From contig NC_086108.1 in assembly GCF_963921235.1 (NCBI RefSeq), positions 70,434,001-70,494,000 on the forward strand: a stretch of 60,000 nucleotides of DNA, read 5' to 3'. Position numbers and translations under genes: made by a program. This DNA comes from Mobula hypostoma. Lineage: Eukaryota. Below the pieces are notes generated by a model. That model was not told the DNA's origin. It did not search any database and saw nothing but the letters and a program-made list of their open reading frames with translations. Shown in pieces: positions 13,955-55,609 of this stretch; position 1 is the first letter of the stretch, and the number at the start of each line of letters is the position of its first letter.

Positions 13955-14949
13955 CTACAGAAAATTCAATACAACAATCGTGAAAAATCTGGAAATTTCT
14001 TTGCTAATTTCCATGCCTATTGGTTTCATATCATTTTGTTAAAGAAGACAAGTTGACTCACTCAGGATTTTTATTCCCATCTTTTAACAAATTCTCTCCT
14101 TCACGAACCACACCACTCCCGCACCCCACCCGCACCAACACCCACTGTGACAAGTCAATGAACTGCTAAGTACCTCTGTGGTATATCTCCTCACAATAGC
14201 AGCTAATTTTAGTTTACCATTACATCTTCACTCAACTGTACTTTAATAAAATTAAAATGAGTGATTTATAACTGGTTTGCTATAAAATGCTCATGGTGTG
14301 AAATTTGTTCTGAGGCAATAGCACCAAAATGGATTTATGAGAAATAATATTTGCTATATTATTTGGTTACTCTAAAGAGGTAACTTCAATAGCTCTACAG
14401 TTTTGTGCACTGTTATCTCGGTTGTCTATACTGTACACTTAACAAAAACTAGTGATATTCATTACAAGTGCAATATAAAGACAACAAGAAATGTTCCACT
14501 TTCATTTTGTTAGCCTTGATCAGCAGTAACATTATTAACCCAGCTTTACATTCAAGTTGCACTCCAGAGTTCCATCTGTAATAAGTATTCTAGTCTAATA
14601 ACGCAATGCAGCAAACAGTGAATTAGCATTTTTCAGATGAGAGTGTTACAGCATGGTCTCACTTGACAGATGACATGCAACAAAAAACAGCCAAGCTCTC
14701 TCTTGTGTCCTAATATTCATCCCTTAAACCAATCTTATTTGATGAGAAGCTCACTGCATACGGGAATTAGTAGTAGTCACACTTCAAAAGTACATTAATA
14801 ATGAAGTGCTTTGAGACCCTGGAGATCATGACAAGAATTCATAGAAAGATATGCAAGGATAAATGATCTGCAGGTAATACAAAAACAGGAATCGTGGGGT
14901 GGAGTTGGGGAGTCCTTTCCTCGAAAGGGCGCTGGAAAGATGCTAATCG

Positions 14950-15614
14950 ATATTTCAAAGTAGTCGCTATAAAATTTTCAACACATTTGTGCATAAATGG
15001 GGTGGTGGAGGAGTACAAATACTTGACTGGAAACCAATACTAAGGCTGTTTACAAGAAGGGGATGAGCAGACTCTAATTCCTAAGAAAGCTGAGATCCTT
15101 CAATGTGTGCAGCAGCATGTTGGAGATCTTTTGCCTAGCAAGGGCATTCTTCTTTGCAACTTTATATTGGGGGAGCAGCATCGATACTGGAAATGCAAAA
15201 AGACTAAATTAAAAAGGCTGGATCCGTCCTTGGGTACAACCTGGACACTTTTGTGTTAGTGGTGGAGAGGAGGTCACTAAACAAACTGTTATCCATTATG
15301 GACAATCTGACACATCCTCTCCATGACCTACTGAATAAGCAGCGGACAGACTCATTCAGTCCCACTGTCACAAGGATGGTTACAGAAAATCTTTCCTAAG
15401 CATGTAAGCAGTTCATCTCTGTGTGACAAGAGAATACCCATCATAGTACAATAGTCTCTGCTTTATTATTTTGTACATTATTATTGCACATTGGTAAATT
15501 ATTATTGTGTATATTACTATTCTGTATATTATTAGTTAAGTCTGCACACTGCTAAGTGTGTTTTTAAATGACGCTGCTGTGACGAAAGAATTTCCCACTC
15601 AGGATAACAAAGTA
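14950..15614 (+). mobile_element. LINE 3' fragment (Rex/Babar-like) whose tail is split by the Penelope insertion
   Basis: VVEEYKYL / KKG..RL.FLRKLRSFNVC remnants; the tail resumes at 17695 with an (ATT)n run. Confidence 0.65.
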
Positions 15615-15707
15615 AACACAAAATAATCTGCAGATGCTGGGATCAAAGCAACACTCACAGTACACTGGAGGAACTCAGCAGGTCGGGCAGCATCAATGGA
15701 AACGATG

Positions 15708-15743
15708 AGTCGATGTTTCGGGCCGGAACCCTTCGTCAGGACT
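15708..15743 (-). ncRNA. Minimal type I hammerhead ribozyme motif (PLE-associated), host-sense
   Basis: agtc CTGACGA aggg-ttccgg-ccc GAAA c ATC gact; core intact, palindromic ACGT changed to ACAT. Confidence 0.75.
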
Positions 15744-17615
15744 GAACAAAGAAGGTGGGGGAAGGATTTGAAGAATGCTTGTAGGTTCAGTTGAAAGACC
15801 AGTAATTTGAAAGACAAAGGGGTGGAGGAGGGAAAGCAGGGTCGTTATAGGCAGGGAAACAATGGGTAGTAGAAGAAGGAGGCGGAACCATGAGGGAGGT
15901 GATAGGCAGCTGGGGTAGGGAGCAGAGTGAAATAGGGATAGAGGAAGGGAGGGGGAGGGACTTACCGGAAGTTGGAGAATTCTATGTTCATACCAAGGGG
16001 CTGGAGACTACCTAGACGGTATATGAGGTGTTGCTCCTCCAACTTGAGATTAGCCTTATCATGGCAGTAGAGGCGGCCATGTATGGACATATCTGAATGG
16101 GAATGGGAAGCAGAGTTGAAGCGGGTGGCTACCGGGAGATCCTGTCTGTTGTGGCGGACGGAGTGGAGGTGCTCAACGAAGCGGTCCCCCAATCTGCGTC
16201 AGGTTTCACCGATGTAGAGGAGGCCGCACCGGGAGCACCGGATGCAATAGATGACTCCAACAGACTCACAAGTGAAGTGTTGCCTCACCTGGAAGGACTG
16301 TTTGGGGCCCTGAATGGTGGCAAGAGAGGAGGTGTAGGGACAGGTGTAGCACTTATGCTTACAGGGATAAGTGCCGGGTGGGAGATCCTTGGGGATGGAC
16401 GTGTGGATAAGTGAGTCGTGGAGGGACCAATCCCTGTGGAAAGCAGAGAGGGGTGGAGAGGGAAAGATGTGCTTAGTGGTGGGGTCCTGTTGAAGGTGGC
16501 GGAAGTTGCGGAGGATAACATGCTGGATCCGGAGGCTGGTGGGGTGGTAGGACAAGGGGAACCCTGTCCCTGTGGTGGTGGCGGGAGGATGGGGTGAGGG
16601 CCGAAGTGCGGGAAATGGAGGAGATGCGGGTGAGGGCATCATTGATGACGGTAGAAGGGAAACCACGATCCTTAAAGAAAGAGGACATTTAAAATGTCCT
16701 GGAACGGAAAGCCTCATCCTGGGAGCAGATGCGGCAGAGACGGAGGAATTGGGAATAGGGAATGGTATTTTTGCATGTGGTGGGGTGGGAAGAGGTATAG
16801 TTGAGGTAGTTATGAGAGTCAGATCTCTGGATCCAGCACATTATCCTCCGCAACTTCCGCCACCTTCAACAGGACCCCACCACTAAGCACATCTTTCCCT
16901 CTCCACCCCTCTCTGCTTTCCACAGGGATTGGTCCCTCCACGACTCCCTTATCCGCATGTCCATCGCCAAGGATCTCCCACCCAGCACTTATCCCTGTAA
17001 GCATAAGTGCTACACCTGTCCCTACACCTCCTCTCTTGCTACCATTCAGGGCCCCAAACAGTCCTTCCAGGTGAGGCAACACTTCACTTGTGAGTCTGTT
17101 GGGGTCATCTATTGCATCCGGTGCTCCCGGTGCGGCCTCCTCTACATCATTGAAACCCGACGCAGATTGGGGGACCGCTTCGTTGAGCACCTCCACTCCG
17201 TCCGCCACAACAGACAGGATCTCCCGGTAGCCACCCACTTCAACTCTGCTTCCCATTCCCATTCAGATATGTCCATACATGGCCTCCTCTACTGCCATGA
17301 TAAGGCTAATCTCAAGTTGGAGGAGCAACACCTCATATACCGTCTAGGTAGTCTCCAGCCCCTTGATATGAATGTAGAATTCTCCAACTTCCGGTAAGTC
17401 CCTCCCCCTCCCTTCCTCTATCCCTATTTCACTCTGCCCCCTACCCCAGCTGCCTATCACCTCCCTCATGGTTCCGCCTCCTTCTTCTACTACCCATTGT
17501 TTTCCTGCCTATGACATCCCTGCTTCCCCTCCCCCACCCTTTTGTCTTTCAAATTACTGGTCTTTCAACTGAACCTACAAGCATTCTTCAAATCCTTCTC
17601 CCTCCTTCTTTGTTC

Positions 17616-17651
17616 AGTCCTGACGAAGCGTTCCGGCCCGAAACGTCGACT
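17616..17651 (+). ncRNA. Minimal type I hammerhead ribozyme motif
   Basis: agtc CTGACGA agcg-ttccgg-ccc GAAA c GTC gact; one mismatch in helix II. Confidence 0.75.
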
Positions 17652-18079
17652 CATCGTTTCCACTGATGCTGCCCAACCTGCTGAGTTCCTCCAAGATAAC
17701 AAAGTACTTACTATTATTATTATTATTAAAATGTTTTTACTCTTTTAATGCTTCTAATGCCTTGCTTTTAGGATGTTGATAAGTCACCTCATGGTGAAGC
17801 ACTGGGTCTACATTCCACCCTTTAGCTGGACAAATTGCCAGTCAGGTTGCATATTTTATGTTGGCCATTTTTATCAGTCACATTACCTTGAAGTACTGGG
17901 ATCAACACAAATAAAATCCCCTAGCAGCTTCTATAGGTGCCTGGTTAATGTTCCCTTTTCAATGCATAACGTACAGAATAAAAATACCAACCATCACTTT
18001 TATATTCTCTGCTGTGGCATTAATCCTTTCTTAATTTAATCCTCTACCTACTCTTACACTATCTGCTGCATTCTGCTTT

Positions 18080-18725
18080 CTGGTTGGCTGCCAGTGACTG
18101 GTGGTTTTCTGCCGAGGTCGGTGCTGGGACTGCTCTTTTCACTTCACATGTCAATGATTTGGATGACAGAATCGATAAGTTTGTGGCCAAATTTGCGGAC
18201 GATACAAAGATAGATGGATGGACTGGCAGTATTGAGGAAGCAGGGAGTCTGCAGAAGCATTTAAACAGATTAGGAAAATGGGCAAAGACCAGGCAGATGG
18301 AATACAATGTAGGAAAGTGCATGGTCATGCACTTTAGTGGAAGGAATAAAAGCTCAGACTATTTTTTAAATTTGGAGCAAATTCAGAAATCGGAGATGCA
18401 AAGGGACTTGGGAATCCTAGTCCACGGATTCCTTAAAGTTTAACTTGCAGGTTGAGTCAGTGGTCAGAAAGCAAATGCAATGTTAGCATTCATTTTGAGA
18501 GGACAAGAACATAAAAACAAGGACTTGATGCTGAGGCTTAGTAAGACATTGGTCAGACCACACTTGGAGTACTGTGATCAGTTCTGGACCTCTTATCGAA
18601 GAAAGGAGGTGCTGGCCTTGGAAATGTTCACAAGAATTATCCTGGGAACAAAAGGGTTAATATATGAGGAGCAGTTGATGGCTTTGGACCTATGCACATT
18701 CTGCTCCTGTGTCTAATGGTCTTAT
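18080..18725 (+). mobile_element. CR1 RT fragment
   Basis: NDLDD..VAKFADDTKI motif in ORF 18084..18443. Confidence 0.88.
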
Positions 18726-18921
18726 TTCAATTGCCATTATAGTCCATTAAAGTCATTTCCTGTGCATGCAAACACATTAATTTAAAATAAGTTAAAATGA
18801 AGGAAAATTTTGTTATATTTAAAATTACATCAGGCATTCAAAAGCACTTAATATTATACACTCTTATAATTTACAAGCAGTACAAATGCTCTGCTTAAAG
18901 GAATGAATACCCTATACTTGC

Positions 18922-18994
18922 CTGGAGGTACTGGAAGATCTCCAAAATCTACTTTTCTTCCAGATTTATGTGCTCTGATGGCACCCTGGTACTG
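18922..18994 (-). CDS. CC2D1B: CC2D1B exon, end of DM14-3 (QYQGAIRAHKSGRKVDFGDLPVPP), followed by a GC donor
   Basis: tccag| acceptor and CAG|gcaagt donor, 73 nt, phase 0->1; conserved QYQ.AIRAH..GR.V....LPVPPG. Confidence 0.93.
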
Positions 18995-20024
18995 CTGGAT
19001 AATAAAAAGGTAGAAATTTCAATTACACATTTCATCAAGTTGATGTACATTTTCAACTGACCAATTTCAAACTAATTTATGTAAATATAGCTCCTGCATA
19101 CATGAATATTTTAAAGAATATTTATGTTTTTTGTTGTAATTTTGTCCTATGAAATCATCGTTGAAGATGATGCTTTTGTTATGTTTGTACTGACTGAAAT
19201 AAATGTCATTCATTCATTCACTATTCATCTGCATATCTGCAAAAGAGTAAACGCCATTATAAATGGGACTCTCAAATATTTAATGTTAAAACTGGTCTCT
19301 TGGATTTTTGTTGGACAGTGGAGGAGGGGAATAGAGGGTTCTTTCTGTGTCAAATAGCGCCTTATCACTTAGCAACCCTTTCATAATGTACTTAGTTCTC
19401 AAACATTGCAACTTTACTGGGGATAATTTCTAATGACTCCCTTACATTCTTGGAAGAGTCTAAGAAAAGGGCTGACTTTGTTTTCATGTTATCATTATCT
19501 TTTTGATCATTGTTGACACAAATATCACAGTTCTTCCTTACAACTATTAAATGAAACAGAATTGTTAAAATATAAAATGACTCCATTTGCGTCATTTTAA
19601 CTTTTGAGCTATAAATGAATGTTTCTCAATGAGATTTCACTGGCTACGTAACCTATTAAGAACTTTTGGACTAAGCTATATACAAGGGGCAGGTTAACCA
19701 GTTGAGAATAGCTTTGCACATCCCATTTTAAGTTACCTGGCATCATCCTGGTCACCTTCACAAAGATAACATTAACTAACCGTCACCCACAAACTAACAA
19801 ACCATCAAATTGTTCATCTATTTTTTATCTAGACTTAATAGTTACATCAACATTGTACGCCTTATCACATCACCTCCAGGAAATTAGAGCTAAATTCATG
19901 CACTTTTGTAACTTATTCCATGAAATAGGGCCTCACTAACAAAATATAATGCTCTAACCAAATCATTTTAAGAATGCAGTATTCAGCTGGCCAGTCACTG
20001 TGAAGGTACACCACAATGTCAGTG

Positions 20025-21266
20025 AGAAGCTGGGAGGTGATAGAGGGAAAAGGTAAAAGGGCTGAAGAAGAAGAAACACCTGATAGGAGAGAAGAGGGGA
20101 CCATAGGAGAAAGGTGGGGGGGGAGTGATAGGCAAGTGAGCAGAAAAGAAGAGGTAAGGGGGTAATTGGAAGGGGAAGGGTAAAAATAACTGGAAGTTAT
20201 AGAAATCAATGTTCATGCCATTAGTTGGAAGCTACCCAGACAGAATAAGAGGTGTTGCTCCTCCAACCTGAGAGTGGCCTCATCATGGCAGAAGAGGAGG
20301 CCATGGACCAACATGTCGGAATGAGAATGAGGATTGGGAATTAAAATGGCTGGTCACCGGGAAAACCTGCTTGTTGCCGATGGAATGAAGGTGCTTGACA
20401 AAGCAGTCCCCCAATCTACATCAGGCCTCATCAATGCAGAGGAGGCCACATCGGAAGCACTAGATACAGTAGATTACCCCAACAAACTGGCAGGTGAAAT
20501 GCATCTCATCTGGGAGGATTGTTTGGGGCTCTGAACGGAGTTGAAGGAGGAGGTGAATGGGCAGGTGTTGCATTTCTTCCGCTCAGAGGGATAAATGCCA
20601 GGAAGGAGATAAGAAGATTACTGGGGAAGGAAGAATGTCTTTCCCTTTTCCACCTATCTGCTCCCAGCTTCTCACTTCATCCACCCCCAACCTCTTCCAC
20701 TGACCTGGCTTTACCCCTCACCTTCTAGCTTGTACTCCTTCCTCTTCCTTCCCCCTCACCCCACAACCGATCACCTTCTTAATCTGGCTTCTTCCCCCTT
20801 CCTTTCCAGTCCTTTTTTTTTTGGCGTGTGCCTGCGTGCGCGCAACTCTGTGCGTGTGTCCGCGTGTGCGTACATGTCTGCCCGTGATGCCTTTTTCATG
20901 GCTTTTTACAAGGCGCGGAGCGAGAGAGAGACTGTGTGACACACCACTCCTCACACAGACAGTTCACAGTATTTTTCCCTTTATTTTATGAGGTCCAGTT
21001 GTGATCTCGACACTCAACCCGGCACGGATGGAAAGCGTACTCGGGAGCGGACCCGACTGGTTTCGAACCCGGGAACCTCCCCTCCCAGGTCTGGCGCCGA
21101 TGTCATTACGCCACCAGCCGGCCCTCCTTTCCAGTCCTAATGAAGGGTCTTGGCCCAAAACGTTGACTGTTTATTCCTTTCTATAGATGCTGCCTGACTT
21201 ACTGAGTTTCACCAGCATTTAGCATGTGTTACTCAGGTTTTCCAGCACCTGCAGAATCTCTTGTGT
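20025..21266. mobile_element. Older Penelope-like insertion with an inversion (minus ~20025-20610, plus ~20640-21266) and a 14-bp TSD
   Basis: Degenerate GIY-YIG coding region on the minus strand. TSD ccacaatgt(c/t)agtg at 20011-20024 and 21267-21280. Degenerate hammerhead at 21132-21169. Confidence 0.8.
20814..21124 (-). mobile_element. Young tRNA-derived SINE with poly(A) tail and a 14-bp TSD
   Basis: A box tggcgtaatg, B box ggttcgaaacc, A-tail, CpG-rich. TSD tcctttccagtcct at 20800-20813 and 21125-21138. Confidence 0.88.
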
Positions 21267-22008
21267 CCACAATGTTAGTGTCTAGTTAAGTCTCTTTTCA
21301 TACGAGTAGGGTTTTGACATAACAGCCTAATGCAACTGAATGGCTTTGAGAAGACTTTTACAAGTTAAGCACATTGTTCTGGATTCAAAATCATACATTG
21401 CAAGAGCAGGTAGGATAATGGTTCCCTGCATATCAGTAGATATAAATCTCCACCAGTGTACAGTCAAGGTCCATCTGGTGTAAACCAAATAGAAGCTGTG
21501 TTTGCCAATTCCTGGCCATTGAAGATACTACAATCTTCTGTGAAGATCTATATATCAAATGTCAGTTTGGAAACTATCGTAGGAGATAGATTCAAGCCTC
21601 GATTGGAACCTTGAACTAGCTGCAAGAGAACTTGGACGGACTGAGCACCAAGGGAAAGCAAGTGTCTATCTGCAATTCAAAGCAATGAGGGATACATTGC
21701 TACTGCAAAGCGTTCGCAATGAGGGAATAATTGAATCAGCTATAAGAGGGTCAGAATATACAGTAGATAACAAAGATGGTTTCATCAACAGCCTCTACAC
21801 ATCTCACAAATAAAATGGCCATCGAGTGTGTAAAACTATGAGTGTCCAATTATTTCATGGTTATCAATGAAATGGAACAGCTCATTAAAACATACATGAA
21901 GGTTTTCACATTAGATAGGATGGCTAAGGGAATCTGTGGATCCACATGTTCAGCAAGAAATAAACATCTTTAAAAGGGAACTGGAAAAATGCCTCAGTAT
22001 TAACGTAC

Positions 22009-32147: not shown

Positions 32148-33190
32148 CAGGCAGTGACTAGTGGGGTACCGCAAGGCTCAGTGCTGGGACCCCAGTTGTT
32201 TACAATATATATTAATGACTTAGACGAGGGAATTAAATGCAGCATCTCCAAGTTTGCGGATGACACGAAGCTGGGTGGCAGAGTTAGCTATGAGGAGGAT
32301 GCTAAGGGGATGCAGGGTGACTTGGATAAGTTAGGTAAGCAGGCAAATTCATGGCAGATGCAATTTAATGTGGATCAATGTGAGGTTATCCACTTTGGTG
32401 GCAAGAACAGAAAAACAGATTATTATCTGAACGGTGGCTGATTAGGATAAGGGGAGGTGCAACAAGACCTGGTGTCATTGTACACCAGTCATTGAAAGTG
32501 GGCATGCAGGTACGGCAGGCGGTGAAAAAGGCGAATGGTATGCTGGCATTCATAGCAAGAAGATTTGAGTACAGGAGCAGGAAGGTTCTACTGCAGTTGT
32601 ACAAGCCTTGGTGAGACCACACCTGGAGTATTGTGTGTAGCTTTGGTCCCCTAATCTGAGGAAAGATATCCTTGTCATAGAGGAAGTACAAAGAAGGTTC
32701 ACCAGATTGATTCCTGGGATGGCAGGACTTTCATATGATGAAAGACTGGATCGACTAGACTTCTACTTGCTGGAATTTAGAAGATTGAGGGGGGATCTTA
32801 TTGAAACGTATAAAATTCTAAAGGGATTTGACAGGCTAGTTGGAGGAAGATTGTTCCCGATGTTGGGGAAGTCCAGAACGAGGGGTCACAGTTTACGGAT
32901 AAAGGGAAAGCCTTTTAGGACCGAGATGAGGAAAAACTTCTTCACACAGAGAGTGGTGAATCTGTGGAATTCTCTGCCACAGGAAACAGCTGAGGCCAGT
33001 TCATTGGCTATATTTAAGAGGGAGTTAGATAAGGCCCTTGTGGCTAAAGGGATTGGGGGTATGGAGAGAAGGCAGGTACAGGGTTCTGAGTTGGATGATC
33101 AGCCATGATCATACTGAATGGTGGTGCAGGCTCGAGGGGCCGAATGGCCTACTCCTGCACCTATTTTCTATGTTTCTATGTTTATGTTTC
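32148..33190 (+). mobile_element. CR1 3' fragment, young subfamily
   Basis: GVPQGSVLGPQLF..INDLD..KFADDTK; nearly identical to 44880-45920. Confidence 0.93.
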
Positions 33191-34551: not shown

Positions 34552-36104
34552 CCGTAAATTCCAGTGTATAAGCCGAAAATTTGGCCCTAAATTTTGGTCC
34601 GAAAATTAGGCGGTTGGCTTATACAGAGGGTGCCAACTTTGGAAAAACGAATACACGGAAGATAAGTCGTCTTTAATGGCTGTTTTTGAGTCAAATACAA
34701 AAGAAAATACAAATGCTTATGAAATCTACACAAAAGAAACACAGATGTCAAACCACCAGGGATGAATGCAATGTCCGTATTTTCAGCTTTCAGTGCTGCT
34801 TTTGTCTCACCTGACAAGTGCGCTTTGCACATGTCCCAGACAAGTAGCAACTTTTCCTTCCTGAAACCCTCGGGACGTCAACGCCACCCCTCTTTAACCC
34901 ACTTCAAGCAACCCACTTCGTCCATCCAGCCGTGTTCTTGAACGTAAACAACTACACCCCGCGGGAATTTTTCTTTCTTTGGTAATGTTTTCCTCTTAAA
35001 AATCACCATCGGTGGTAGTTTGGTCCCATCAGCCATACACGTTAACACGACAGTAAAATGATGCTACTCGTGTCCAGATGTTTTGACAAGGACTGTTTTC
35101 TCCCCCTTCTGATTGACAGTGCGGTTGCCAGCAAAATCAAAGAACATTGGTGTCTCGTCCATGTTACCAATCAGTGAGAGCGGGTAAGAACGTGCCTTTC
35201 AATGCTTGATTACAAACAATTGGAAGGCCGTAATCTTATTCTCAAGGTTGCCCAGCAACTTCTGAGCAATCTTTGCTTTTTGTCTCAACACAAGATCACG
35301 TCTATTCATAAATTGGGTGCACCAACTTCACATAGCTTTGAAATTTTCACTGACCTCACTGTGTTTTGCGGTCCATTTCAACGCTTGAACTCAAATCATT
35401 TCTCTGATAACAATGTATCCAGACAATCGCTGGTGATTCGCCCACTCTAAAACTTTTTCTTCCCGTCCTGGCCACTGGTATGTTTTCCCGTGGTTTGCAC
35501 ATTTCGTCTTTGGCATTTCCCTCAGCGTGTCCTCTGCCTTTCTCCACTCTCTCACTTGTGTCACATTTACACTAAACTTCTTAGCAGCTGCAGAATCATT
35601 CATTCCTTTAGCAAAATCAACAACCTTCAGCTTGAAGCTAGCATCGTATCGCATTCATTTTAATCTTTTGTACATGGTGGTCACAAACTCAATACTGAGC
35701 ACACGTACTGATCCCACCACCCCGCATTATGTTTTAACGAGATTACGATGGGTGCTAAATGGTTTCACGGGGGTTACATTTCAGAGGATTCTTTACCATT
35801 GGGAACCTAATCCAAAACTTCCCTCCCTGATTTATTTATTAAGAATTCGCTTATAATGCTCAACAATGTGTAGGCCTATTTTCTTAGCAGGTACTGGTTC
35901 ACAAAATTTCCAGGTTCCGGATCCAGCAAAGCTGAGTACTGGCATGTGAGATCTTGTGATCTTTTCTGGTTAAATCAAAAACCTCTACAAAAGGGGTCGG
36001 CTTATACAAAGGTAACATGAAAAAGTCACTTTTTTAACCTTAAAAATGGGGGGGGGGGGGGATCGGCTTATACTCCGGGTCGGCTTATACACTGGAATTT
36101 ACAG
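34552..36104 (-). mobile_element. Tc2/pogo-family (POGK-related) DNA transposon with a decayed transposase
   Basis: TA|ccgtaaattccagtgtataagccga ... tcggcttatacactggaatttacag|TA TIRs. BrkDBD-like N-terminus (YDASFKLKVVDFAK...AAAKKFSVN..QVREWRK) and DDE_1 motifs NMDETP, GWMDE, LLVWD, IPGGLTS. Confidence 0.9.
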
Positions 36105-38370: not shown

Positions 38371-39971
38371 CAATGCCTATTAAAGTATTCCTCCCCCTTC
38401 CCTGCAAGTTTTCATGTTTTATTGTTTTACAACATTGAATCACAGTGGATTTAATATGGCTTTTTTGACACTGATCAACAGAAAAAAAGACTCCTTTGTG
38501 TCAAAGTCAAAACAGATCTCGATAAAGTGATCTAAATTAATTACAAATATAAAACGCAAAATAATTGATTGTACAAGTGCTCATCTCATTCAAGTCAGTA
38601 TTTAGTAGACACAGCAACTACAGCCTTGAGTCTGTGAGGATTGGTCTCCATCAGCTTTGCATACCCGGACACTGCAATTTTTTCCCCACTCTTCTTCACA
38701 AAACTGCTCAGATTGCATGGGGTTAGTGAGTGAACAGCCCTTTTCAAGTCCAGTCACAAATTCTCAATTGGATTGAGGTCTGGACTCCAACTTGGCCACT
38801 CCAGGACATTAACTTTGTTGTTTTTACGCCATTCCTGTGTAGCTTTGGTTTTATGTCTAGGATCATTGTCTTCTGGAAAACAAATCTTCTCCCAAGTCGC
38901 AGTTCTCTTGCACAAGGCATCAGTTTTTTCTCCAGGATTTCCCTGTATTATGCTCCATTCATTTTACCCTCTGCCTTCACAAGCCTTCCAGGGCCTGCTG
39001 CAGTGAAGCATTCCCACAGCATGATGCAGCCACCACCATGCTTCACAGCAGGGATGGCGTGTTTTCTCATGAGGTACAGTGCTTGGCTCACACCAAAATA
39101 GCATTTAGTCTGATGGCCAAAAGGCTCAATTTCGGTTTCATCAGACCATAGATCCTTCTTCCAGCCGAGTCTCCCACATTCCTTCCGGCAAACTGTAGCT
39201 GAGATCTCATGTGAGTTTTTTTTCCAACAGTGGCTTTCCGTTTGCCACTCTCCGATAAAGCTGCAACAGGCGAAGCACCTGGGCAACAGTTGTTGTATGT
39301 GCAGTCTCTCTCATCTCAGCCACTGAAGCTTGTAATTCCTCCAGAGTTGTCATAGGTCTCGTGGTACCTCCCTCACTCATCCCCTTCTTGCACGTCACTC
39401 AGTTTTTGAGGATGGCCTGCTCTAGACAGATTTACATCTGTGCCATATTCTTTCAATTTCTTGATGATTGACTTAACTGTACTCCAAGGGATATTCAGTG
39501 ACTTGGAAATTTTCTTGTATCCATCCCAATTTGTACTTTGCAATAACCTTTACCCAGAGTTGCTTGGAGTGTTCCTTTGTCTTCGTAGTGTAGTTTTTGC
39601 CAGGATACTAACTAACCAGCAGTTGGACCTTCCCAATACAGATGTATTTTTACTACAATCAATTGAAACACCTCAAATGCACATGGTAATCTCCATTTAA
39701 CTAATTATGTGGCTTCTAAAACCAACTGGCTGCACGATTGATGATTTGGTGTCATACTAAAGGGGAGTGAATACTTAACATTCAATTATTGTGTGTTTTA
39801 TATTTCTAATTAATATAGATCACTTTGTAGAGATCTGTTTTCATTTTGACATGATCTTTTTCTGTTGATCAGTGTCAAAAAAAGCCAAATTAAATCCACT
39901 GTGATTCAATGTTGTAAAACAATAAAACATGAAAACTTCCAAACGGGGGTGAATATTTTTTATAGGCACTG
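38371..39971 (-). mobile_element. Full-length, decayed Tc1-like transposon with long TIRs
   Basis: ~210-bp TIRs ca(a/g)tgcctat...; LWSDET and KHGGG.IM.W motifs; frameshifted. Confidence 0.92.
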
Positions 39972-43655: not shown

Positions 43656-44005
43656 ATAATTAAGATAGCACACACCGTTACAAAAAAATAGTATCAGCAC
43701 AAGTCCCGGAATGGCATGGCCTGAAGATTGATGGTGCATGGAATGTTGTCATGGAGCCATGTTTCTACAAGAACAAGTATACAGCAGTTTCTCAACTCAA
43801 GCTGTTCAAACTACATATATGTCACCATATACAACTTTGAGATTCATTTTCTTGTAGGCATACTCACTAAATCTATAGAATAATAACTATATGCCCAATC
43901 AGAGCACAGAAGACAACAAACTGTGTAAATACAAAAAGAACTGAATGTGGGAACATGTCAATGATGAAGCATGTGAAGTTGAATTAAGTTCAACTTAATT
44001 CAATT

Positions 44006-45920
44006 TAAGGGCTTAATTAGGAAAGGGAAAAAAGATTATGAGAGAAAGCTGGCAGGGAACATAAAAACTGACTGTAAAAGCTTTTATAGATATGTGAAAA
44101 GAAAAAGATTGGTTAAGACAAATGTAGGTGCCTTACAGTCAGAAACAGGTGAATTGATCATGGGGAACAAGGACATGGCAGACCAATTGAATAACTACTT
44201 TGGTTCTGTCTTCACTAAGGAGGACATAAATAATCTTCCAGAAATAGTAGGGGACCGGGGGTCTAGTGAGATGGAGGAACTGAGGGAAATACATGTTAGT
44301 AGGGAAGTGCTGTTAGGTAAATTGAAGGGATTAAAGGCAGATAAATCCCCAGGGCCAGATGCTCTGCATCCCAGAGTGCTTAAGGAAGTAGCCCAAGAAA
44401 TAGTGGATGCATTAGTGATAATTTTTCAAAACTCTTTAGATTCTGGATTAGCTCCTGAGGATTGGAGGGTGGCTAATGTAACCCCACTTTTTAAAAAAGG
44501 AGGGAGAGAGAAACCGGGGAATTATAGACCGGTAAGCCTAACGTCGGTGGTGGGGAAACTGCTGGAGTCAGTTATCAAAGATGTGATAACAGCACATTTG
44601 GAAAGCGGTGATATCATCGGACAAAGTCAGCATGGATTTGTGAAAGGAAAATCATGTCTGACGAATCTCATAGAAATTTTTGAGGATGTAACTAGTAGAG
44701 TGGATAGGGGAGAACCAGTGGATGTGGTATATTTGGATTTTCAAAAGGCTTTTGACAAGGTCCCACACGGGAGATTAGTGTGCAAACTTAAAGCACACGG
44801 GATTGGGGAATGGTATTAATGTGAGAATTGGTTGGCAGACAGGAAGCAAAGAGTGGGAATAAACGGGACCTTTTCAGAATGGCAGGCAGTGACTAGTGGG
44901 GTACCGCAAGGCTCAGTGCTGGGACCCCAGTTGTTTACAATATATATTAATGACTTAGACGAAGGAATTAAATGCAACATCTCCAAGTTTGCGGATGACA
45001 CGAAGCTGGGCAGCAGTGCTAGCTGTGAGGAGGACGCTAAGAGGATGCAGGGTGACTTGGATAGGTTAGGTGAGTGGGCAAATTCATGGCAGATGCAATT
45101 TAAAGTGGATAAATGTGAGGTTATCCACTTTGGTGGCAAAAACAGGAAAACAGATTATTATCTGAATGGTGGCTGATTAGGAAAAAGGGAGGTGCAACAA
45201 GACCTGGGTGTCATTGTACACCAGTCATTGAAAGTGGGCATGCAGGTACAGCAGGCAGTGAAAAAGGCGAATGGCATGCTGGCATTCGTAGCAAAAGGAT
45301 TCGAGTACAGGAGCAGGGAGGTACTACTGCAGTTGTACAAGGCCTTGGTGAGACCACACCTGGAGTATTGTGTGCAGTTTTGGTCCCCTAATCTGAGGAA
45401 AGACATTCTTGCCATAGAGGGAGTACAAAGAAGGTTCACCAGATTGATTCCTGGGATGGCAGGACTTTCATATAATGAAAGATTGAATCGACTAGGCTTA
45501 TACTCCCTGGAATTTAGAAGATTGAGGGGGGATCTTATTGAAACGTATAAAATTCTAAAGGGATTGGACAGGCTGGATGTAGGAAGATTGTTCCTGAAGT
45601 TGGGGAAGTCCAGAACAAGGGGTCACAGTTTGAGGATAAAGGGGAAGCCTTTTAGGACTGAGATGAGGAAAAACTTCTTCACACAGAGAGTGGTGAATTA
45701 TCTGGAATTCTCTGCCACAGGAAACAGTTGAGGCCAGTTCATTGGCTCTATTTAAGAAGGAGTTAGATATGGCCCTTGTGACTAAAGGGATCAGGGGGTA
45801 TGCAGAGAAGGCAGGTACAGGGTTCTGAGTTGGATGATCAGCCATGATCATACTGAATGGCGATGCAGGCTCAAAGAGCTGAATGGCCTACTCCTGCATC
45901 TACTTTCTATGTTTCTATGT
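44006..45920 (+). mobile_element. 5'-truncated CR1 LINE nested in a Rex/Babar fragment
   Basis: Long RT ORFs 44094-45731 (PGNYRPVSLTS, YLDFQKAFDKVPH, KFADDTK); (tttctatg)n tail. Confidence 0.95.
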
Positions 45921-46159
45921 GTTATCTCCTTTAATTCAAGAGCCTGATGGTTGAGGAGTAGTAACTCTTCCTGAAGCCGGTGATGTGATTCCTGAGGCTC
46001 TTGTACTTTCTTCCTGATGGCAGCAGCGAGAAGAGAGCGTGACCTGGTTATAAAGGGTCCCTGATGATGGATGCTGCTTCACTGCAACAACATTTTGTCT
46101 AGATATGGCCAATGGTTGGGAGGGCTTTATCCATGATGTACCGTGCTATATCCACTATA

Positions 46160-48668: not shown

Positions 48669-48795
48669 CTTATACATAAGATAACCTGTTTTTTTTCTAT
48701 ATTTATTTATCGTGTATTTCATTGTACTGCTGCTGTAAAGTTAACGGATTTCACTACGTATGCTGGTAATATTAAACCTGATTCTGAGGTGCTAC

Positions 48796-48972
48796 ACACA
48801 TCAAAGGGATTTCAAATCCCTTACTCACTCTTCCTTCAGTTAGTCCTGACGAAGGGTCTCGGCCTGAAACGTCGACTGCACCTCTTCCTATAGATGCTGC
48901 TTGGCCTGCTGCGTTCACCAGCAACTTTGATGTGTGTTGCTTGAATTTCCAGCATCTGCAGAATTCCTGTTG
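48796..48972 (+). mobile_element. Short Penelope-derived insert with a 13-bp TSD
   Basis: TSD tctgaggtgctac at 48783-48795 and 48973-48985; PLE-type tail gatgctgc...ccagcatctgcaga. Confidence 0.85.
48842..48877 (+). ncRNA. Minimal type I hammerhead ribozyme, intact
   Basis: agtc CTGACGA agg-gtctcgg-cct GAAA c GTC gact; helix I agtc/gact, GUC cleavage triplet. Confidence 0.85.
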
Positions 48973-49803
48973 TCTGAGGTGCTACCATGCTTTGCCCACA
49001 ACTGCACAGGGCCCAGGACAGGTACTGCAGAATACCACCACCTAGGAACCGAGGAACTCTCCATCTCTGATCCTCCGATGAGGACTGGATCATGGACCTC
49101 TGCTTTCCTTCTCCTGGTCTATAATCAGCTCCTTGGTCTTGCTGACATTGTGAGAATTTGTTGTTCTGACACCACTCATCCAGACTTTTAATCTCCCACA
49201 ATGGTGTCATCAATTAACCTGAATATGGCATTAGAGCTGTGCTTAACCACAGAGCGGTTTAGTGTGAAACGAGAAGAGCAGGGGGCTGGGCACACAGCCT
49301 TGTGGTGCACTTGTGCTGATGCAGATCGTGGAGGAGATGTTCATCTGCAGACTAAGGCAAATCAGCTTGTCTTGTTCTTTGTCAGCCGCAAGCAAAGACA
49401 ATCCTGCTGGTCTTCCAGGGTTGCAAACCCGATGGGAGGGGCCAGCCTCCAACCCCTGTTCGCTCCCACAGTGCCTCTGGCACCTCCTCCCAGCCTCCAA
49501 CCCAGCGCAGTCTAGAGCACGCTCACTGCACCCCCGTTCTCTCCCACAGTGCCTCCTCCCCTGGGTGGCTGCAACAGGTGATGCTGCACGCAACATAGAA
49601 GCCACAAACCACACAGCTCCCTCAGCTACCAATGAACCAGACTTGCAGTATTTTATATTACCAATGAACAACAGGGTCTTCCAATAGCAATAAAAACATT
49701 TAAGACAAACATTTTCTAATTTATAACACTATATACTGTACAACTTGGCCACTTCAGACATTTTCTAGGAAAAGAGGCTGTGATCAGTTGTTTGAAATGA
49801 TAA

Positions 49804-49978
49804 GCAACACACATAAAAGTTGCTGGTGAATGCAGCAGGCCAGGCAGCATCTCTAGGAAGAGGTACGGTCGACGTTTCAGGCCGAGACCCTTCGTCAGGC
49901 CTAACTGAAGGAAGAGTGAGTAAGGGATTTATGTGTGTTGCTTGAATTTCCAGCATCTGCAGAATTCCTGTTGTTTGC
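49804..49978. mobile_element. Short Penelope-derived insert with a 5' inversion and a 14-bp TSD
   Basis: Inverted part 49804-49930 and forward part 49931-49978. TSD gtttgaaatgataa at 49790-49803 and 49979-49992. Confidence 0.85.
49867..49902 (-). ncRNA. Minimal type I hammerhead ribozyme motif, host-sense
   Basis: aggc CTGACGA agg-gtctcgg-cct GAAA c GTC gacc; core intact, helix I weakened. Confidence 0.75.
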
Positions 49979-50794
49979 GTTTGAAATGATAATTTCTTTT
50001 TTAGCAATCAGATGCAGATCCATTAACTTTATCAGTATCTTCTAATCAAGAGCTCACATGAATGAGTTAAAATGATTTGCATCCACCTAGGATCTGATAG
50101 GAGAACCTTTACACAATTATTGGAAGATGATCACTTCTTCCTCTTCACGACCTCTCCTTCACTTTTTACCAAAGGGTATTTCCTATGTTTAGCTGATTTC
50201 AGACATGCACTGGCACACCCCTATTCCTTGACACCTAGTCTGAGAGAAGGCAAAAAAAAGCTTGAGTATGACCAATGTGACAGCTTTACCAATGCCATTT
50301 CTAAAGGAAATTAAAATTACTATCAGAAAGGTACACAGGTTAATAAGAGTCTTCTCACACATTCATCAATCTTACAAAGGAAAGAGAAATGCACACACGT
50401 TTCCTGTTCTAGTTCTGTCCAACAGTATGCCACAAGTATGGTCACAGTGACATTGTTTCAGCTGTGCTAACTTTAGTAGAAAACATTTATTATAGATCAG
50501 TGGGAAGTACAATTCACAAGTATCTTTCCTAATATGCAAGGAATCTTCTGGTATTTCTCATTCACCAAAACTGGAATTTTGTAACCAATTAATTACATCG
50601 AGTATATCATAAAGTAATTCCAAGAATTTTGTCAAGCAGTAATGTTCAATGCCTCGATTTCTATGGAGTGGTACTGAGAATATTGACAAATATAATCAGA
50701 CAAGGCAGACATGTTCCTGTTCTCCATCTAAAGAATGGTTGGATGACACAGTCTTTTGTTGTCATCATCTATGTTTGCTTCCCCCACCTCCAAC

Positions 50795-54478: not shown

Positions 54479-55040
54479 AATTAGTATTACAATCAGGAAC
54501 TTTGATCAATTTAACTGAGAATTTTTATTTGTGAATTACATGCTTCTTTTTTCACAGTAGAGACAAAAAAAAAGGTAAAGCATGAAAAACTAAGAACTCA
54601 CAAACTGAAATGTCAGCAGTTCAGAAGAATTCATCCCCCTTTGCTGAGTACTTAGCTGAACCACTTCTCGCAGATTTTACAGCAGTCTTTTTGGATAAAT
54701 CTCAGTTGGCTTTACACAACGTGATGGAGCAAGATTTACAAAATTGCACAAGCTATGCCAGGTTTGTTGGAGAGCAGTGGTGGACAGCAATCCTGAGCTG
54801 TTCATTGGGTTGAGTCAGGATGTGGAGCCACTCAAGGACATTAACTTCCTTCATCTGAAGCCACCCCATGGTTGCTCTGGGTCACTGTCCTGCAGAAAGA
54901 TGAACTTCCTCCCCAGTTTAACCTTTCTGGCAGAACTTGCAGGTTTTTATCCAAGATCTCTCTGTGTTTCATCTTCATTTTCCCATCAATATGACCAGAT
55001 TTCCAGTCCCTGCTGCTGAAAAAATATCCCTCAGCATGAT

Positions 55041-55583
55041 ATCGTGTCCAGTGCTCCCAATGCAGCCTCCTCTACACTGGTGACATCCGTTGTAAATTGG
55101 GAGACAGGTTCGTCAAGCACCTCCACTCCATCTGTCAAAAGCAGGACTTCCACAGTGGCCAAACATTTTAATTCTGAGTCCCATTCCCATTCTGACATGT
55201 AGGCCCATGGCCTCCTCTTGTGCCATGACGAGGCCACCTTTATTCTGTCTGGGTAGCCTCCAACCTGGTGGCATAAGTATCAATTTTTTTCTTCTGGTAA
55301 AAAACTGTTTCCCACCCCTCCTCTCTTCTTGTATTCCCCACTCTGGCCCCTTACTGCTTCTCACCTGCCTAACACCACCCTCTGGGTCCCCTCCTCCTTC
55401 CATTTCTCCTATGGTCCACTCTCCTATCCTATCAGATTCCTTCCTCTCCCCCCACCTTTTATTCTGCCGTCTTCCACCTTCCTTTCCTGTTCCAATGAAG
55501 GGTCTCGGCCCAAAACATCGACTGCTCATTCATTTCCATAGATGCTGCCTGATCTGTGGAGTTCCTCCAGCATTTTGTGAGGG
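55041..55583 (+). mobile_element. Penelope-like 3' fragment with a degenerate hammerhead (55487-55524)
   Basis: GIY-YIG remnant and PLE tail. Imperfect TSD atcc(ctc/tat)agcatgat at 55026-55040 and 55584-55598. Confidence 0.8.
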
Positions 55584-55609
55584 ATCCTATAGCATGATGC
55601 TACCTCCAC

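Follow-up and report, generated by a model that had tools for sequence, protein, structure and literature searches.

We analyzed a 60,000-nt stretch of the Mobula hypostoma contig NC_086108.1 (hereafter the window), in which a Penelope-like insertion lies inside an intron of the gene CC2D1B. The host gene is recovered as 14 exon blocks of the protein P0001 on the minus strand (86–100% identity). An exon frame compared against a protein collection has ray CC2D1B proteins as its best matches, at 98% identity, with CC2D1A absent from the names of the 120 matches listed for that query, and a profile search detected the DM14 domain in all three exon frames tested, which fits CC2D1B. Residues 434–461 (19003–18920) and 461–500 (13955–13836) form consecutive exon blocks on either side of the insertion, which therefore lies within one intron, about 1.2 kb from the splice donor and about 1.6 kb from the acceptor; the location proposed in an earlier sequence-only reading of this DNA is thus borne out. 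The exons being on the minus strand, the left of the two element copies, likewise on the minus strand, is the host-sense one. The features of the locus are as follows:

13955 to 18921, minus strand: host CC2D1B intron, 4967 nt, with a GC donor and an AG acceptor.
15603 to 15614, unstranded: left repeat of the target-site duplication, 12 bp, exact.
15615 to 16822, minus strand: left copy, a 5′-truncated Penelope-like element with two in-frame stops and one frameshift.
15615 to 15665, minus strand: tail of 51 nt, found in the left copy only, a one-sided tail of the kind described in the structural account of PMC8557442.
15666 to 16534, minus strand: left arm, from the repeat finder and the arm alignment.
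15708 to 15743, minus strand: host-sense minimal hammerhead motif, with cleavage triplet AUC and the stem-III pair lost.
16535 to 16824, minus strand: spacer of 290 nt, made up of the part of the left copy without a counterpart in the right copy, plus 2 letters.
16825 to 17694, plus strand: right copy and right arm, shorter and tailless, with the YIG of the endonuclease changed to YII.
17616 to 17651, plus strand: host-antisense minimal hammerhead motif, with GUC intact and a C·C mismatch in stem II at 17629.
17695 to 17706, unstranded: right repeat of the target-site duplication, 12 bp, exact.

The GC donor reads G/GCAAGT at 18921–18920, and the AG acceptor lies at 13955. A simple pattern scan of the insertion's host-sense strand returned neither a splice-acceptor-like pyrimidine tract nor an AATAAA signal. 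The target (14860–15614 and 17707–17730) resembles an older LINE at its 3′ terminus, with a (TAT)n tail behind it; the Penelope unit thus appears to have split the end of that LINE, which is perhaps of the Rex1/Babar type. The introns of CC2D1B also hold many further inverted repeat pairs of 65–85% identity.

The repeat finder delimits two inverted arms of 869 nt each (15666–16534 and 16825–17693) with 290 nt between them. Their gapless alignment has 32 differences (25 transitions and 7 transversions), that is, 96.3% identity, and both methods agree with the coordinates, spacer and roughly 96% identity first reported for the repeat. A single target duplication surrounds the whole unit, as had also been claimed: it is exact over 12 bp (15603–15614 and 17695–17706), extends to 15 bp if one transition is allowed, and scores 13 against a best of 9 among 60 random pairs from the window. 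The left copy comprises, in order, the end of the RT region, a CX3CxxC linker, the GIY-YIG endonuclease, a 3′ non-coding part, the hammerhead and the tail. The right copy begins 290 nt further in, and the spacer reflects the further extension of the left copy on its 5′ side, into the last part of the RT region, with two letters at the head-to-head joint (16823–16824) matching neither copy. Both halves are dead, and both reading frames carry lesions.

The Penelope-like identity suggested earlier finds support in relatives of the element, which are 54–80% identical to it and retain RT and GIY-YIG traces, and in the Atlas, where the endonuclease part clusters with GIY-YIG at 0.96 (22 of 30 matches in the GIY-YIG set). 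All four relatives compared with Pfam match PF01541, with E-values of 2e-4 to 2e-3 and scores below the curated cut-off, and the relative P0128 matches RVT_1 weakly (E 0.008), the RT core being missing from the truncated copy itself. Pfam searches with the four frames of the window's own element recovered no family, and a PDB sequence search with the alignment A1 recovered no match. The Atlas clustering, together with the sub-cut-off PF01541 matches of the relatives, points to the GIY-YIG endonuclease expected of C-terminal EN+ Penelope-like elements. The window frames and alignment A1 display two cysteines between GIY and YIG, VIYCIRCSRCGLLYIG, along with downstream histidines, and this CCHH motif belongs to the definition of such elements in PMC8557442. 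The terminal inverted arrangement, the one-sided tail and the short target duplication are likewise those of the EN+ layout. Within this group, the linker is diagnostic: CKHKCYTC precedes the endonuclease in both copies and conforms to CX2-5CxxC, which the same part of PMC8557442 assigns to the Neptune/Nematis type, Penelope/Poseidon being described there without a linker. Hence, judged by its linker, the element is Neptune/Nematis-like rather than of the Penelope/Poseidon type.

Long stretches of this family's frame are also contained in the public ray models P0121, P0124 and P0131, which bear the names of divergent protein kinase domain 1C, mucin-2 and chitinase domain protein 1 isoforms. 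These likely represent annotation capture or exonisation.

The sequence-only reading had also placed a hammerhead on each arm. This stands insofar as core patterns are present at 15712–15739 (minus) and 17620–17647 (plus), with the host-sense one on the left, but it overlooked that both carry a lesion. Across the window, this pattern was found 4 times where 0.24 occurrences would be expected, and none of 100 shuffles reaches 4. Searches across the whole window at the gathering score of the Rfam hammerhead families gave no match, and in folding neither motif does better than its shuffles (z +0.96 and +1.28); thus, the term hammerhead rests here on the core pattern and the published minimal descriptor. 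Both motifs display the minimal type I features: a CUGANGA and GAAA core, helices I and II, the extra base 9/10.1 and G10.1–C11.1. In the right motif, helix II has one C·C mismatch, at 17629, where 99% of the family depth reads G. In the host-sense left motif, GUC has become AUC, a change that removes the stem-III pair along with the self-complementary core of the dimer. The dimer duplex is accordingly placed at +1.3 kcal/mol for this AUC motif as against −3.1 kcal/mol for the intact right motif, and the palindromic 15.2–16.2 stretch is retained by the right motif and absent from the left one. The lesions in the two motifs probably arose after insertion.

Contigs from four public runs were compared with the assembly over 16540–19200, the left arm and left junction falling outside this stretch. 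Among the 40 variant rows listed of 195, 23 lie in the right arm. Twelve of these coincide with differences between the arms, and in all 12 the alternative letter is that of the left arm; at the other 11 the arms agree with each other, and at 6 of them another letter makes up at least 85% of the family depth in run X1. The arms thus have in common six letters seldom found elsewhere in the family, which indicates that both derive from one source copy, unless they were converted. Taken with the one duplication, this sustains the claim of a single insertion event. At the right junction, a 440-nt X1 contig equals 17666–18105 without a difference, including a right-arm-specific letter at 17675. A contig of X12, another sample of the same organism, covers 17665–18022, and one from a second organism (organism B) begins at 17681. 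On the element side, these contigs hold 29, 30 and 14 letters, respectively, all short of the 31 that the comparison requires; of the 14 in organism B, an empty site would also match 3. X1 is possibly the assembly's own sample. With a divergence of about 2%, organism B seems to have the right junction as well. The central joint (16822/16825) is spanned by no contig among the longest listed of more than 211,000 pieces.

The divergence of the arms had been put forward as an insertion clock, with many of the differences said to fall at CpG. The latter is so, as 17 of the 32 are at CpG-prone sites (17 of 70 such sites as against 15 of 799 others). The clock works roughly, but needs a CpG correction: the raw divergence of 3.7% (K2P 3.8%) is about double the non-CpG value of 1.9% (95% interval 1.1–3.1%). 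The unique flanks differ from organism B by 2.0% (18/882 in X5 records 21, 22 and 24, a figure that omits record 23, with 3/138, and four element-internal records) and from a third, organism C, by 4.3% (18/415 in one record, the run X9 giving no cover at 17786–18052). As the non-CpG arm divergence is close to the flank divergence to B, the insertion would date to about the split from organism B or somewhat before it, which agrees with the apparent right junction of B.

The window holds further insertions of this kind:

20011 to 21280: insertion B, at 74% identity with the focal copy; its duplication spans 14 bp with one mismatch, and its hammerhead is decayed.
48783 to 48985: insertion C, tiny, with its own 13–14-bp duplication and an inverted stub.
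49790 to 49992: insertion D, tiny, with its own 13–14-bp duplication and an inverted stub.

Counting the focal unit, four of the five Penelope-type insertions found in the window (all but insertion E) combine a 12–15-bp duplication with head-to-head halves; in E (55040–55587) no duplication above chance was detected. Insertion B is an older Penelope-type insertion whose head-to-head halves have 33 nt in common, neither containing the other, and the same is true of the halves of D, with 16 nt in common. The hammerhead ends of C and D are mutually inverted, 94.6% identical over 129 nt and about 860 nt apart. Another repeat is nested in B at about 20818–21124.

Turning to the RNA, the predicted fold pairs 850 of the 869 arm bases and 34 of the 36 ribozyme bases with their mirror, in unbroken runs of up to 134 bp, in keeping with the earlier suggestion that the CC2D1B pre-mRNA could form a long hairpin. 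Transitions in the host-sense duplex are divided between 13 G·U and 12 A·C (p = 1.0), and 19 of the 32 arm differences break a base pair. No selection on the hairpin is seen in these tests, which rest on 32 differences and have low power, such that weak or early selection would be missed; the arms and hammerheads are likely marked by unselected decay. With such marks on both the arms and the ribozyme motifs, the insertion is likely an ordinary relic. Passive ADAR editing of the hairpin is nevertheless likely by analogy: the hyper-editing survey of PMC5625713, in the part describing its substrates, reports that inverted repeats drive hyper-editing across animals, with more than 40,000 hyper-editing sites in lizard Penelope elements and about 200,000 hyper-edited sites in the elephant shark. 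The change spectrum of X12, which is taken as RNA by guess, has 21 T>C and 26 A>G changes, as compared with 24–27 T>C and 24–27 A>G in the DNA runs; most of it stems from further copies of the family in the contigs, and it is hence uninformative on editing at the CC2D1B locus. The contig depth in X12 is 149 at exon position 18984 versus about 5 in the intron near the insertion, though contigs cannot show the level.

Thus, we propose that the locus holds a dead two-copy Penelope-like insertion that was likely primed from two nicks and has likely decayed without selection since, an overall explanation to which we assign a probability of roughly 0.85. That it is an ordinary dead insertion is the firmest part and very probable indeed; the two-nick route is moderately favored. 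By this account, the endonuclease would have nicked both target strands 12–15 nt apart. One nick would then have primed at the far start of the element RNA, giving the tail and about 1.2 kb of copy, and the other about 50 nt further in, giving about 0.87 kb, after which the two cDNA ends would have been joined head to head. Both primed copies likely came from the RNA of one source copy. In the present-day gene, we predict that the two arms pair within the pre-mRNA as a long duplex, which would undergo passive editing by ADAR ahead of the disposal of the intron and play no role under selection. The biochemical precedent lies in the Anolis work, where the experiments described in PMC11167929 have a purified Penelope-like protein cutting and extending both strands, with two initiation sites that delimit the tail.

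Several other histories could leave a similar structure. That the inversion is an artefact of assembly is extremely improbable: although no listed contig crosses the central joint and inverted Penelope structures are known from the assembly remarks of PMC8557442 to trouble assemblies, an artefact is hard to reconcile with the 32 substitutions between the arms, which are biased to transitions and CpG and come without indels, with the exact duplication flanking the unit, or with the difference-free 440-nt X1 contig and the second-sample contig at the right junction. We regard it as very unlikely, too, that the arms arose from two independent insertions, or were made or homogenised by some subsequent rearrangement or gene conversion, in which case their divergence would not date the insertion. 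The family is indeed very abundant (a summed X1 depth of 2.5e5–2.1e6 on the arm against 10–16 in the unique flanks, though summed contig depth on the arm is not a copy number), and C and D offer a local instance of separate copies lying inverted near each other. Against this stand the single duplication around the unit with none at its center, the six family-rare letters common to both arms and the scatter of the differences along the arms. A more serious competitor, yet one that we consider less likely than two-nick priming by a clear measure, would produce the same relic by fold-back or self-priming, with one cDNA copying its own first 0.87 kb and the 290-nt spacer being the loop. Such a route is possible for the focal unit, in which the left copy wholly contains the right one and the joint has a 3-nt match one base off register. 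Insertion C fits it as well, and self-priming has been proposed for head-to-head Penelope repeats in the discussion of mechanism in PMC3846280. The two letters at the joint that match neither copy tell against it, as does the extension of both nicked strands by the purified Anolis enzyme (PMC11167929). The focal unit by itself cannot tell the two routes apart. In the neighboring B and D, however, either half has sequence that its partner lacks, which the copying of one cDNA by itself cannot give, and these two insertions favor the two-nick route over fold-back.

A different kind of alternative grants the hairpin a role, with the inverted arm either masking the ribozyme or supplying edited or diced RNA, so that the insertion became tolerable or useful. 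The sequence-only reading had invoked the masking of the host-sense ribozyme as the reason for tolerance, and we find this most improbable. In its favor, transcription reaches the antisense twin about 1.9 kb ahead of the ribozyme, whose bases are almost all paired in the predicted fold (34 of 36), the hammerhead lesions probably post-date insertion, and both host-sense cores in the window (15712–15739 and 49871–49898) have an inverted partner less than 2 kb away, albeit with n = 2. Further, the summary of bioRxiv 10.64898/2026.07.22.740005 reports a depletion of tandem hammerhead arrays in introns. On the other side, the host-sense motif bears the AUC lesion, the arm differences have no pair-keeping bias, the arms diverge at the rate of the flanks, and the head-to-head layout recurs in four of the five local insertions irrespective of orientation. 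In addition, a single minimal hammerhead gave no cleavage in vitro in the assays described in PMC4209133, that of the Anolis Penelope requires protein (PMC11167929), and hammerhead cuts in introns still allowed splicing, unlike those of the faster HDV ribozyme, which block it, as PMC2995048 recounts in summarising earlier work. By extension, it is a long shot that ray Penelope elements in general prime at both nicks, carry an antisense mask, survive in introns where unmasked copies are purged, and thereby seed thousands of ADAR substrates.

The ordinary two-copy insertion that we prefer has close published counterparts, and its head-to-head layout is already on record as typical for endonuclease-bearing Penelope-like elements. 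The structural account of PMC8557442 has an inverted 5′-truncated copy adjoining at the 5′ end and a 30–40-bp tail that is often at one end only, and that of PMC3846280 has inverted pLTR units inside 8–10-bp duplications, with head-to-head the most frequent arrangement. The focal unit shares with this canonical EN+ unit the head-to-head 5′-truncated inverted partner, the one-sided tail, the one short duplication and the terminal-repeat hammerhead. It differs in its long arms (869 nt, reaching through the endonuclease) without a tandem pLTR, its tail of 51 nt rather than 30–40, its duplication of 12–15 bp rather than 8–10, and a central spacer of 290 nt instead of a short palindrome. The metazoan Penelope minimal hammerheads, as characterized in PMC4209133, resemble the focal motifs in their type I core, 4-bp helix I, extra base 9/10.1, G10.1–C11.1, want of a real helix III, and occurrence as dual motifs on opposite strands; there, the two are 100–700 bp apart, whereas the focal ones are about 1.9 kb apart, each with a private lesion. 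PAc, the Poseidon of Anolis carolinensis, parallels the focal unit in the two initiation points delimiting a tail, the A+T-rich target, and the cutting and extension of both strands (as far as PMC11167929 describes them). It differs in that its Penelope/Poseidon group is without the CX2-5CxxC linker found in the focal element, which is moreover dead. With the inverted-repeat substrates of hyper-editing described in PMC5625713, the focal unit has in common a long near-perfect intronic duplex of two inverted copies, its own being the product of one insertion and a predicted editing substrate.

There is also a likeness to L1 twin priming, in which two target ends prime on the element RNA to give an inverted half inside one duplication, the halves barely overlapping. 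Insertions B and D look much like this, whereas the focal halves overlap by 869 nt and would need strand displacement or two RNA molecules. Literature searches on Penelope inverted repeats, target-site duplications and twin priming returned no Penelope-mechanism paper by title, and those on transposable elements of cartilaginous fishes and rays none on this family by title among the 12 listed of 18; both are weak evidence, few subscription papers being covered.

Taken alone, the locus matters little: it illustrates a published layout in a clean and well-preserved form. The window's four inverted insertions range from near-abutting halves (B and D) to a long overlap (the focal unit); they bear on the unsettled origin of Penelope inverted repeats and favor two primed cDNAs. 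With CpG excluded, long arms of this kind further provide a clock for each insertion, and the presence or absence of this one could serve as a marker between closely related ray species.

Elsewhere in the window, two LINE copies (32148–33185 and 44883–45925) lie in direct orientation, 93% identical over 1043 nt, with long RT-like frames at 43983–45731. The frames at 35391–35654 (minus) and 38730–39549 resemble fragments of DNA transposases (pogo-like and Tc1-like).
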